29,676 bases of DNA, taken from IMG/VR virus record IMGVR_UViG_3300050494_000042, one strand, 5' to 3'. Origin of the DNA: a virus. The notes beneath the pieces are model-generated. The model was not told where the DNA came from. It saw only the letters and a list, made by a program, of their open reading frames with translations, and searched no databases. The translations under genes were made by a program, and so were the position numbers. Positions 5,319-26,784 of this stretch are shown here, in pieces; positions within the stretch are counted from its first letter, which is position 1, and each line of letters opens with the position of its first letter.

Positions 5319-5567
5319 TTACCCCAAAGTACGGATTGCGTTGAAGATCAATTCTCTTGCACAGACCACCTCCACCACGCACAGGACAGTGAAGATTACC
5401 ACGAAGAACCATCCCCTGGGGTAAGAGGACCAGCACATCGCCAGGAACAAGGTGCTCATGACGATGTGAGCACATGCCTGGTAGACGCCATCCTTGACGC
5501 CCACGATGCGAGGAATCGCGACAGCGAAGGCCAGTACCAGCCACATGGCAGAATAGGCGATGGACAT
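5319..5567 (-). CDS. small multi-pass membrane protein (holin candidate)
   Basis: 82 aa with about three hydrophobic segments. Its start overlaps the upstream stop. Confidence 0.6.
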   Translation of the reverse strand: MSIAYSAMWLVLAFAVAIPRIVGVKDGVYQACAHIVMSTLFLAMCWSSYPRGWFFVVIFTVLCVVEVVCARELIFNAIRTLG

Positions 5568-11684: not shown

Positions 11685-11885
11685 ATGTCATCCCAAACCT
11701 TCCCCATCTGTCCGCTGTGCTTTCTGCCCATGACACCAGGGCAGGCGATTCACGACAATGACCTGTGTCCTGTTCACTTGGCATGTGCTCAGAAGATGCA
11801 GCGGGAACTGGAAGAAATCGACCTGGATGCCCAAGAACGGGATTTCAAGTATCGAGAACGAAACCACAACCCTGACGGGGATTAA
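11685..11885 (+). CDS. small Zn-finger protein
   Basis: CPLC…HLAC, GGAG RBS. Confidence 0.6.
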   Translation: MSSQTFPICPLCFLPMTPGQAIHDNDLCPVHLACAQKMQRELEEIDLDAQERDFKYRERNHNPDGD

Positions 11886-11944
11886 TCCGCTGCAGTGGAT
11901 TGGTAACTGCAAATACGACCACGCCAGTACAAAGGAACTCGCTC

Positions 11945-17640: not shown

Positions 17641-17846
17641 CAAATTGTCCGTAAGTCCTGTACAGGAAACGGGATAATACTCTTTGTTGCTGAAATCAGG
17701 ATCTCGCAGGACGTAAGTTATTACAAAATAAGGATTTAGATGCATTGTCAGCAGGAGGAGACAGACGTCAATCTTGGAAATAAGTACCCTCTCGCGGCAA
17801 CAGCTTGATTTGCTTTTCGGGCAAGAGGATGCTACTCTCCCAAGTG
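17641..17846 (+). promoter_or_regulatory. CRISPR leader-like region with a sigma70 promoter
   Basis: Non-coding and AT-richer, with TAAGT motifs at 17652/17714/17781. TTGCTT(17810-15)-17 nt-TACTCT(17833-38) with a TGn extension puts +1 near the first repeat. Confidence 0.75.
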
Positions 17847-18009
17847 GTGACATACCGAGTGCAACCGGTTTGTAGTTGCAACGAAAACACGTCGATTTTT
17901 ATTGACCAACAAGTTGATGGTGACATACCGAGTGCAACCGGTTTGTAGTTGCAACCGGAGGAACGGTAGGTGGAATGCGGGGTGACATGCCGAGTACAGC
18001 CAATGTGAA
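17847..18009 (+). CRISPR. orphan CRISPR mini-array (2 identical 36-nt repeats, 1 degenerate terminal repeat, 2 spacers)
   Basis: GTGACATACCGAGTGCAACCGGTTTGTAGTTGCAAC at 17847-17882 and 17920-17955. Spacers are 37 and 26 nt. The third copy at 17982 matches 21 of the first 28 nt. No cas gene in the window. Confidence 0.8.
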
Positions 18010-18014
18010 ACCAG

Positions 18015-18036
18015 TTGGAGAGTTGTAACTCTCCAA
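18015..18036. terminator. hairpin after the terminal repeat, at the convergent junction
   Basis: TTGGAGAGTT-GT-AACTCTCCAA, a perfect inverted repeat. Confidence 0.55.
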
Positions 18037-18041
18037 GTTGC

Positions 18042-18077
18042 CCGTCATTCCTAGTGCATTGGGTTTGTAAATGCAAC
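18042..18077 (+). repeat. diverged CRISPR repeat copy overlapping the 3' end of the glycosidase gene
   Basis: 26/36 identity to the array repeat, with a compensated stem TGCATT/AATGCA. Confidence 0.7.
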
Positions 18078-19265
18078 AACGGTACGTTGGGGAGTAAGTG
18101 CTCTTTCCAGATCCTCGTGACGGTATTTGTGGAACGTGATGTGTCGATCATGTGTTCCACTGGCCGTAATCCAGTCGTCACCAACTCGAACTGATGCACC
18201 TACGAATGTTACGGCTATGTACTGATTCGTGGGCTTGGTATCCAGGTCCGCGAACAGAACCGGACGAGGGATGATCCTTCGGAACGCAAAGGGGGGTTTG
18301 GCATCCAGGGTAACGAGTCCGGTCCGGTATCGACTGGGTGATCCGAAACGATCATGCATCCACACCCACAACTCATCACCCACCCGAACCGGAGGTGCCC
18401 CACCCCTCGGTTCCCCCCCTTCCCACGGAATGCCAGGAGCCTCAGAAACCCACTCCGCTCGTTCACCATTCAATTTTGCCACCTTTAGTGGGGATAAACT
18501 GTAGATGGCGTATAAATCCCCACCTGGACGATCCTGGTGCAGAAGATGGTTCTTCTGCCACCTGTTTGAGGGTACTCCTGGCCAATCTGGAGCGAATATC
18601 TGTTCTGTGTCGTAATTCTGCCCCAATCGAGCGTACAGTTGATGCGTCTGGGTGACTTTTCGGTTCCTTCCCACCACCCCAATGAACGAGACGTGCAGTT
18701 TGTCCTTGAAGACGAATAGACGTGGGTCTTCGCGGCCCCAATTCGCCCGTTTGTGGGACAGTTCGAGTTTCTTCGGCTGGCTGACAGGATCGAATCGCTT
18801 GTTGAGTTCACAGATCCAGATGTTCGACCCGGCCCATCCATCCCGCCACGCGAAGGCGTAACCGTCCTTCCATTCCGTCATTCCGGGGTTGAACCGATAC
18901 CCTGCGAGTTGAGGAAAGAAGTTGGTGTGATTCCATTCCTTGAGGACAGTGGACGGAACGGCTGGTTGAAGGATGGCAGGACGAATCTGGGGTTTGGGCT
19001 TGCGGTCGGGACATGAAACGCAACAAGAAACCCCTTCGATCTTCTTGCTGATGGTGCAGGTTCCGTGCTTGGGAACAGCACAACTGAAGACTTTGAGTTG
19101 AACCATCCCGGAGCAGGAAGGGCACTGTTTCGTTTCCCCTGTCTCCTTACCGCGATGAAGACAGAACGTCGGGTCGACCTTCTTGGGAGTGGCAGGAGGC
19201 TTAATGCCACGTTCCGCTTCTTTTCGTTTCAAGTAGACAGCTTCGAGTTCCTTTTTGCTGGGCAA
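18051..19265 (-). CDS. Cys-rich N-terminal domain plus five-bladed beta-propeller glycosidase/phosphorylase (GH130/DUF377-like)
   Basis: FNPG, GREDPRLF, WQKN, RGGAPP, YRTG, VTFVG, SG..D motifs. Confidence 0.75.
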   Translation of the reverse strand: MPSKKELEAVYLKRKEAERGIKPPATPKKVDPTFCLHRGKETGETKQCPSCSGMVQLKVFSCAVPKHGTCTISKKIEGVSCCVSCPDRKPKPQIRPAILQPAVPSTVLKEWNHTNFFPQLAGYRFNPGMTEWKDGYAFAWRDGWAGSNIWICELNKRFDPVSQPKKLELSHKRANWGREDPRLFVFKDKLHVSFIGVVGRNRKVTQTHQLYARLGQNYDTEQIFAPDWPGVPSNRWQKNHLLHQDRPGGDLYAIYSLSPLKVAKLNGERAEWVSEAPGIPWEGGEPRGGAPPVRVGDELWVWMHDRFGSPSRYRTGLVTLDAKPPFAFRRIIPRPVLFADLDTKPTNQYIAVTFVGASVRVGDDWITASGTHDRHITFHKYRHEDLERALTPQRTVVAFTNPMH

Positions 19266-26748: not shown

Positions 26749-26784
26749 GTTGCAACTATTAACCCGTTGCACTGGGATGTTCTT
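26749..26784 (-). repeat. solitary CRISPR repeat unit in the structural operon
   Basis: The - strand reads AAGAACATCCCAGTGCAACGGGTTAATAGTTGCAAC, matching 22 of the last 25 nt of the array repeat. It is intergenic and sense to the late operon. Confidence 0.8.

Follow-up and report, generated by a model that had tools for sequence, protein, structure and literature searches.

Does a solitary, diverged copy of a CRISPR repeat that lies antisense to the end of a phage gene still work as an RNA element, or is it what is left of an array in decay? The question is raised by a 36-nt element, here called unit 4, in IMG/VR virus record IMGVR_UViG_3300050494_000042, from which a stretch of 29,676 nucleotides was analysed as a whole (the window). 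Unit 4 lies on the plus strand, past the end of a short array (the satellite array), and the opposite strand encodes the carboxyterminal end of a glycosidase. Comparison with sister strains, with other copies of the repeat and with further parts of the phage genome suggests that the transcript of the satellite array may well end, at its distal side, in a working handle for the Cas12m-like protein that the phage itself encodes, and that unit 4 is this handle.

Fold and family of unit 4

Unit 4 (18042-18077) reads CCGTCATTCCTAGTGCATTGGGTTTGTAAATGCAAC; 26 of its 36 positions agree with the 36-nt array repeat. The 6-bp stem pairs TGCATT (18055-18060) with AATGCA (18070-18075), where the array repeat has TGCAAC/GTTGCA, so that two adjacent base pairs are altered, each on both sides. 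A second helix of 3 bp joins CCT (18050-18052) to GGG (18061-18063), in place of CCG/CGG in the array. An initial annotation, made from the sequence alone, had described this repeat copy with its paired stem changes and its CCU/GGG helix, and all of these are indeed present. It had also extended the element to 18100; the repeat copy lies where it was placed, but the unit proper ends at 18077, and 18078-18100 is just a would-be spacer. The 3' end of unit 4 (...GCAAC) is that of the array repeats, and A35, C36 and G13 are kept, the last of which is gone from most lone copies. Because these three bases are kept, we assign unit 4 to the array type. A search for tRNAs found none, and an Rfam search matched no family.

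Family membership was judged with a covariance model from which unit 4 and its orthologues had been left out. The model was built with the 6-bp stem from an alignment of 29 other copies, the sources being this phage, the surroundings of its cas12m gene and two related phages. As the copies were gathered partly by sequence similarity, and a few of them by a structure filter, counts drawn from this set lean slightly towards structure. In its loose form the filter returned about 57 hits in shuffled sequence against 53 in the genome; strict hits alone were used, and the statistics were taken from the covariance model. Scanned over the 29.7-kb window with filters off, the model found unit 4 as the fourth-best match (26.1 bits, E 1.8e-5); the three better ones are both repeats of the array and the lone copy at 26749-26784. 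The likeness of unit 4 to the repeat is beyond chance.

Both helices covary among the 29 sequences: 96.6% of the cells are paired, eight of the nine pairs change on both sides, and none of 500 column shuffles reached any of the five observed covariation measures. When the 3' partner was slid by one to three columns as a control, pairing fell to 17-51%. The second helix (columns 9-11 with 20-22) is made up of C-G, G-C, U-A and U-G pairs. G-U outnumbers A-C in the paired cells by 18 to 5, which speaks for RNA of the given strand rather than double-stranded DNA or the opposite strand. These numbers, together with a further compensatory pair in the sister strains described below, bear out the proposal of the initial annotation that covariation in a dispersed family reflects selection on RNA structure. 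In the lineage of unit 4, moreover, pair 18-30 has turned from the A-U of the array consensus to U-A, a swap of two transversions, either of which alone breaks the pair.

Sister strains and the cassette before unit 4

Two short contigs from sister strains (L042 and L045), whose glycosidase DNA is 89.5-90.7% identical to that of the window, carry orthologues of unit 4 at the same place, with stem TGCATC/GATGCA and second helix CCC/GGG. The orthologue of L042 reads CCATCATTCCCGGTGCATCGGGTTTGTAGATGCAAC, and that of L045 is the same with two changes, one in the loop and one at the last base; they differ from the window unit at 5-7 of the 36 positions. When all three strains are compared, variation is found at seven positions, and every pair stays intact. 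The sisters have C-G at both pair 19-29 and pair 11-20, where the window has U-A and U-G, respectively, and the remaining variable positions fall in unpaired bases.

These changes have consequences for the overlapped gene. The glycosidase ends in ...LERALTPQRTVVAFTNPMH (also given as ...ALTPQRTVVAFTNPMH), and its last eight codons with the TAG stop are antisense to unit 4, the stop lying opposite unit positions 10-12. Open reading frame (ORF) 18051-19265 confirms what the initial annotation had stated, that the opposite strand codes for the end of the glycosidase and that the 'spacer' is antisense to that gene. T11 and A12 of the window create the stop codon, and the reading frame of the sisters runs two codons longer. 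Read on the opposite strand, the 5'-arm change of pair 19-29 is silent in a Pro codon and the 3'-arm change replaces Phe by Ser. Together with the bases just past it, the antisense of unit 4 encodes a carboxyterminal extension of about 12 residues. Since the tail that overlaps unit 4 lies past the end point of nearly all homologues, protein constraint there is probably weak. The glycosidase of a distant relative (L043) is 56% identical and has an unrelated tail; a search for related loci with the glycosidase protein alone returned nothing.

In a simple neutral simulation with five substitutions, all nine pairs stayed standard in 10% of trials, and did so with a both-sided change in addition in 1.6%, a result on pair keeping that is suggestive but not overwhelming. 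The fold of unit 4 is preserved at one fixed site, at the cost of a change in the overlapped protein, and this is direct support for the repeat copies being working RNA elements.

The sisters also differ from the window in what precedes unit 4. Both have an intact second array repeat, followed by a 5' untranslated region, a 123-aa plus-strand gene (P0070) and then unit 4, the stop codon of P0070 lying 16 nt upstream of the unit. Their order is thus leader, repeat, spacer, repeat, 123-aa gene and unit 4, with about 490 nt from repeat to unit. P0070 was not found in the window's phage. The window strain has lost it together with the hairpin half of repeat 3, whose equivalent is whole in L042. 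As P0070 ends 16 nt before the unit, plus-strand transcription should reach unit 4 in the sisters, where the unit is the 3' bracket of a gene that occupies a spacer slot.

The layout is the same past the main array of the phage, which is described in the next section: its last repeat is followed by a 93-aa gene with a handle, a 99-aa gene with another handle, and then the portal gene, the handles overlapping the stop codons of the 93-aa and 99-aa genes. L043, a 103,719-bp NCBI contig, fills the convergent gap with a five-repeat array whose second helix is GCC/GGC, and its P0070 homologue (tblastn E 1e-25) lies upstream of the array leader, so that the order of gene and array has changed. As unit 4 is absent from L043, it is specific to the close lineage of the window. 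In the window itself, the spacing from truncated repeat 3 to unit 4 is 60 nt, whereas the array has a period of 73 nt; with this offset, and with antisense of the phage's own gene downstream, it does not stand in a regular repeat-spacer register followed by a foreign spacer.

Table 1. Coordinates of unit 4 and of associated features (window positions unless a contig is named; CM, covariance model).
Feature	Coordinates	Strand	Basis or remark
Unit 4, diverged array-type Cas12m repeat copy	18042-18077	+	26/36 identity and CM leave-out match
Would-be spacer after unit 4, antisense of glycosidase codons ...ALTPQRTV	18078-18100	+	Sequence read
Array leader promoter: -35 TTGCTT (17810-17815), 17-nt spacer, -10 TACTCT (17833-17838)	17810-17838	+	8 nt before repeat 1
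Array repeat 1, 36 nt	17847-17882	+	CM 42.8 bits (sequence in model)
Spacer 1, 37 nt, found in neither sister strain	17883-17919	+	
Array repeat 2, identical to repeat 1	17920-17955	+	
Spacer 2, 26 nt, common to sister L042	17956-17981	+	
Truncated repeat 3, first ~20 nt kept, hairpin half lost	17982-18001	+	CM 13.9 bits, E 0.05
Perfect 8-bp hairpin GGAGAGTT/AACTCTCC, no T tract on either strand	about 18016-18035	both	Window strain only; not called a terminator
GH130/DUF377-like glycosidase, 404 aa	18051-19265	-	Last ~12 codons past usual family C-terminus (extension 18051-18089)
P0070 (L042, L045) and its homologue (L043)	L042 1394-1765; L045 1498-1869; L043 4864-5271	- (each)	Contig strands
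Solitary repeat copy of the array type, with a late gene on either side	26749-26784	-	CM 45.3 bits (sequence in model)
Further candidate member, stem TGCAGT/ACTGCA, second helix TCC/GGA	11878-11913	+	CM 21.7 bits, E 3.3e-4 (outside model)

Some further observations concern the satellite array and its surroundings. The hairpin at 18016-18035, which is found in neither L042 nor L045, looks as if two small insertions, judged against the sister sequences, had made it; the likeness to the leader resides in its 3' arm. Satellite spacers differ by strain: the window has two, L042 has the window's spacer 2 alone (spacer region 1874-1902), and L045 has one unrelated spacer (about 1980-2012). A search of IMG/VR for protospacers by exact match returned none for spacer 1 or spacer 2. 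The examined parts of the phage showed no adaptation genes. The candidate handle at 11878-11913 lies within or beside small plus-strand ORFs.

The phage's Cas12m and the proposals of promoter and guide

Searching IMG/VR for the core of the repeat led to a 39-kb viral contig (G001), on which arrays of the repeat flank a 638-aa ORF (P0001) that matches PDB 23vw, a 'CRISPR-associated DNA-binding protein Cas12m', at E 3e-35. No cas gene was found in the 65,313-bp record of the window's phage (G000), either by Pfam on 30 ORFs, by tblastn with P0001 or with PF07282, the last of which gave just a weak zinc-ribbon match in a reading frame of about 95 aa. The idea of a cas-less phage was nevertheless dropped, as a 103,868-bp contig of the same phage carries a Cas12m-like protein, P0013. 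This contig (ENA k141_2715945) also encodes the window's glycosidase protein and is identical to the window base for base across leader, array and unit 4. Record G000 (1-65313) lacks about 38 kb of the phage, including cas12m, the main array and the portal gene, which is why searches of its own sequence wrongly point to a phage without cas genes.

P0013 has 634 aa, is 51% identical to P0001 and matches 23vw at E 1.3e-43. On the 103,868-bp contig its gene occupies 80816-82720, about 69 kb from unit 4. In the alignment with 23vw, two RuvC positions of P0013 are Ala: one stands opposite the Asp in ...IDLGW..., the other opposite the Glu that comes first in ...LEEF.... The main array, with the repeat GTAACAATCCCAGTGCAACGGGTTAGTAGTTGCAAC, adjoins P0013. 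It also holds one exact copy of the satellite repeat and one hybrid repeat (L041 6323-6358 and 6394-6429), the hybrid having a main-type 5' half, a satellite-type 3' half and a mismatched second helix (CCC/CGG). Homology of a 637-aa ORF of the window to the 638-aa ORF of G001 had been suspected; none was found.

The initial annotation had noted that the bases upstream of unit 4 resemble the -10 region before repeat 1. The resemblance is real in the window, between GTAACTCTCCAAGT (18025-18038) and CTACTCTCCCAAGT (17832-17845), but it is not kept in the two sisters. The duplicated promoter-repeat unit that the annotation derived from it is not supported: there is no -35 box, and in the sisters the end of the 123-aa gene takes the place of the look-alike. 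A promoter of one form, TTGCYT-N17-TA(G/C)NNT (also TTGCYT-N17-TANNNT), recurs in the phage and at a distance of 0-8 nt precedes the satellite array, the main array, the L043 array, the handle before cas12m and two other lone units. A generic sigma-70 scan does not list the array leader promoter. In the generic consensus scan there is neither promoter nor terminator at unit 4, and no TTGC box lies at the right distance upstream of it. A weak start site at unit 4 is conceivable in the window strain alone.

Two further suggestions of the annotation, a single guide and units matched to different effector variants, find no support in the data. The 17-nt would-be guide of unit 4 has no second site with three or fewer mismatches in 75 kb of the phage, and a search for second targets of the would-be guides of 12 units (in G000 and L041, with about 29 kb of the phage outside) gave chance-level hits with 3-4 mismatches. 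The search for Cas12m-like genes covered 75 kb of the phage's about 104 kb and found one, and a scan of IMG/VR gave no array with a stem of the TGCAT type. Among 185,579 species genomes the consensus core had five single hits and no array, where about four hits are expected by chance (19 fixed bases, 596 Gb, two strands). In the JGI metagenomes it was found on the G001 contig and in singletons alone, one of which (L031) is a possible lone unit. In these searches nothing points to a mimicked host system or to a second effector variant.

The L031 unit, at about 5387-5428 on the minus strand of an 11.6-kb metagenome contig (Ga0209039_10003762), has the family stem and a CCA/UGG second helix, a covarying variant, and may be genuine. 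A second class of lone handle, with loop GGGTCRATT and stem TGCTTC/GAAGYA, occurs at L041 6842-6877 and 7234-7269; each of these handles lies about 20 nt past an ordinary handle, forming tandem pairs at gene junctions. On a related 39-kb contig, eight mutually diverged repeats spaced 56-75 nt apart stand directly upstream of cas12m (L013 8440-8962), with compensatory stem differences (TGCAGC/GCTGCA and others), and a regular 15-repeat array follows downstream of cas12m. Elsewhere, a 689-aa ORF on the minus strand (L006 12446-14515) has a ThyX domain that is interrupted by a LAGLIDADG-like insert, probably an intein or a homing endonuclease.

A proposed working handle, its rivals and known systems

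Together, our data suggest a model for unit 4. Plus-strand RNA would start at the array leader and run through the truncated repeat to unit 4, in the sisters by way of the 123-aa gene. The RNA of unit 4 would fold into the 6-bp helix and the 3-bp second helix and be bound by the phage's Cas12m, which, by analogy with Cas12m2, might also cut just upstream of the scaffold. Such processing would punctuate the transcript, giving the upstream RNA its 3' end and leaving behind an RNA that is capped by Cas12m and runs antisense to the last part of the convergent glycosidase gene. The selected part would be the handle and not the 'guide'. In this model, plus-strand transcription in the window strain, binding and cutting by Cas12m and any effect on the glycosidase message are inferred; the data themselves show that unit 4 belongs to the family, that it has evolved in place with its structure spared, that the cassette is an indel between strains and that the phage has a Cas12m gene.

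Several points weigh against unit 4 as a working handle. The in-place evidence comes from three orthologues and one compensatory event, with p about 0.02-0.04 as judged post hoc. The covariance-model score of 26 bits is at the low end of the family. The fold energy is about that of shuffled sequence (z about 0; z -1.1 to -1.4 in context), so that there is no thermodynamic support and the case rests on covariation. No same-strand gene lies downstream, unlike at most lone units, and transcription through the hairpin at 18016-18035 is assumed for the window strain. This branch of Cas12m lacks two RuvC residues, and the mechanism of RNA processing is unsettled even for Cas12m2. Finally, the distant relative L043 has no unit 4 at the end of its glycosidase gene, which suggests that the unit is young and could still be in the course of being lost.

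An alternative view is that unit 4 is a decaying relic, either a degenerate terminal repeat or the last survivor of an older array at the convergent gap, which has no function and merely persists through a recent divergence of strains. We consider this a possible, though doubtful, explanation. It would account for the place at the trailer end in the orientation of the array, beside truncated repeat 3 and an obvious deletion, for the five-repeat array of L043 exactly in this gap with no unit at the gene end, and for the unremarkable fold energy; the divergence of the unit between strains (14-19%) is, moreover, not below that of the neighbouring gene (about 10%). A relic is not, however, expected to spare its pairing in seven of seven substitutions, with a both-sided change that costs a Phe/Ser replacement in the overlapped ORF, nor to exchange A-U for U-A at pair 18-30 when each single step breaks the pair, and G13, A35 and C36 are retained as well. 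An independent unit of promoter and repeat, which would make a single guide, antisense or decoy RNA from its own start, is unlikely. The upstream bases of the window strain are like the -10 region of the array leader at 13 of 16 positions, and the geometry of promoter followed by repeat is real for five other units of the phage. Yet the TTGCYT box is missing at the right distance, the -10 look-alike (AACTCT/TAACTC) is the 3' arm of the strain-specific hairpin, and in the sisters, where the look-alike is missing, this stretch is coding sequence with its stop codon; the consensus scan, the search for a second guide target in 75 kb and the search for arrays with the stem variant, all reported above, likewise speak against such a unit.

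Least probable, and in our view very unlikely, is a role of the minus strand, be it that the glycosidase mRNA has a 3' hairpin here or that purifying selection acts on the ...TNPMH tail, with the likeness to the repeat being historical. The stem is self-complementary on the minus strand too, the TNPMH residues are identical in the three strains, and the stop codon of the glycosidase is made by unit 4. However, the tail lies past the C-terminus of nearly all homologues and is unrelated in L043, and coding constraint does not give rise to paired compensatory changes of which one is non-synonymous. On the minus strand the CCU/GGG helix would contain a C-A mismatch, the family-wide excess of G-U over A-C (18 vs 5) points to the other strand, and no T tract follows the hairpin.

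A wider and more speculative model can be drawn, which we think is on the whole improbable. The Cas12m-like protein would be an RNA-handling protein, and the handles in the phage's transcripts would punctuate operons by offering it places to dock or to cut. At the convergent junction, array read-through would become, by way of unit 4, a Cas12m-capped antisense RNA that tunes the glycosidase message, and genes would be repeat-bracketed cassettes in spacer slots, gained and lost between strains. The presence or absence of a gene between repeat and handle, depending on the strain, suggests that arrays and genes share handle-delimited transcripts. New in this study are the evidence from an orthologous site for selection on the fold, the cassette indel and one more member of the repeat family.

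Among the known systems closest to unit 4 is the type V-M Cas12m repeat with its scaffold (Cas12m2, PDB 8hhl/8hio, PMC10442227; effectors PMC11013384; PDB 23vw). The scaffold of Cas12m2 is a 36-nt repeat-derived RNA, in which a 6-bp helix pairs positions -22 to -17 with -8 to -3, a second helix is stacked coaxially, and recognition is base-specific at C(-1) and A(-2) (PMC10442227). Cleavage of pre-crRNA (precursor CRISPR RNA) upstream of the scaffold is reported for Cas12m2. The repeat of the window shares the length of 36 nt, the 6-bp helix closed 2 nt before the spacer, the second short helix with a pseudoknot-like fold and the terminal A-C, and a Cas12m-type effector, P0013, expected to bind DNA and not to cut it, is encoded by the same phage. 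In contrast to Cas12m2, the 5' helix arm is shifted by one base, unit 4 is solitary, diverged at 10 of 36 positions and followed by antisense of the phage's own coding sequence rather than by a foreign spacer, and the effector has Ala at two RuvC positions. Myxophage MV-1 is likewise a phage with cas12m and an array and without adaptation genes (bioRxiv 10.64898/2026.09.14.751636); the RuvC triad of its Cas12m is intact, however, and the available part of its description makes no mention of lone repeats or of a second array.

A degenerate terminal repeat would share with unit 4 the position at the trailer end, the orientation and the diverged sequence, but unit 4 is out of register (at a spacing of 60 nt in the window, and of about 490 nt with an intervening gene in the sisters) and its structure is kept by compensatory changes. 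Phage-borne and other crlRNAs (CRISPR RNA-like RNAs; bioRxiv 10.1101/2024.10.29.618823), and solitary repeat units (SRUs) beside cas genes, also consist of a repeat with a non-canonical 'guide' and serve regulation rather than immunity. They differ in that crlRNAs act through partial guide matches to promoters, whereas the 17-nt would-be guide of unit 4 has no second site at three or fewer mismatches in the 75 kb searched. Viral SRUs and RNA anti-CRISPRs (Racrs; Camara-Wilpert et al. 2023, PMC10651486) are solitary, structure-keeping repeat copies in phages, and like them unit 4 could load a Cas protein without a useful guide. Racrs, however, mimic host repeats and have their own promoter (PMC10651486), whereas unit 4 has no evident promoter of its own and no terminator after it, the search of 185,579 species genomes gave no host array with the repeat core, and the sole matching effector found is the phage's own. 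Lone CRISPR repeats of phages are known as decoys against the CRISPR systems of their hosts; the effector that matches unit 4 is the non-cutting Cas12m of the phage itself. If arrays and genes do share transcripts with handles as their limits, a CRISPR effector would act in viral gene expression, beyond defence.

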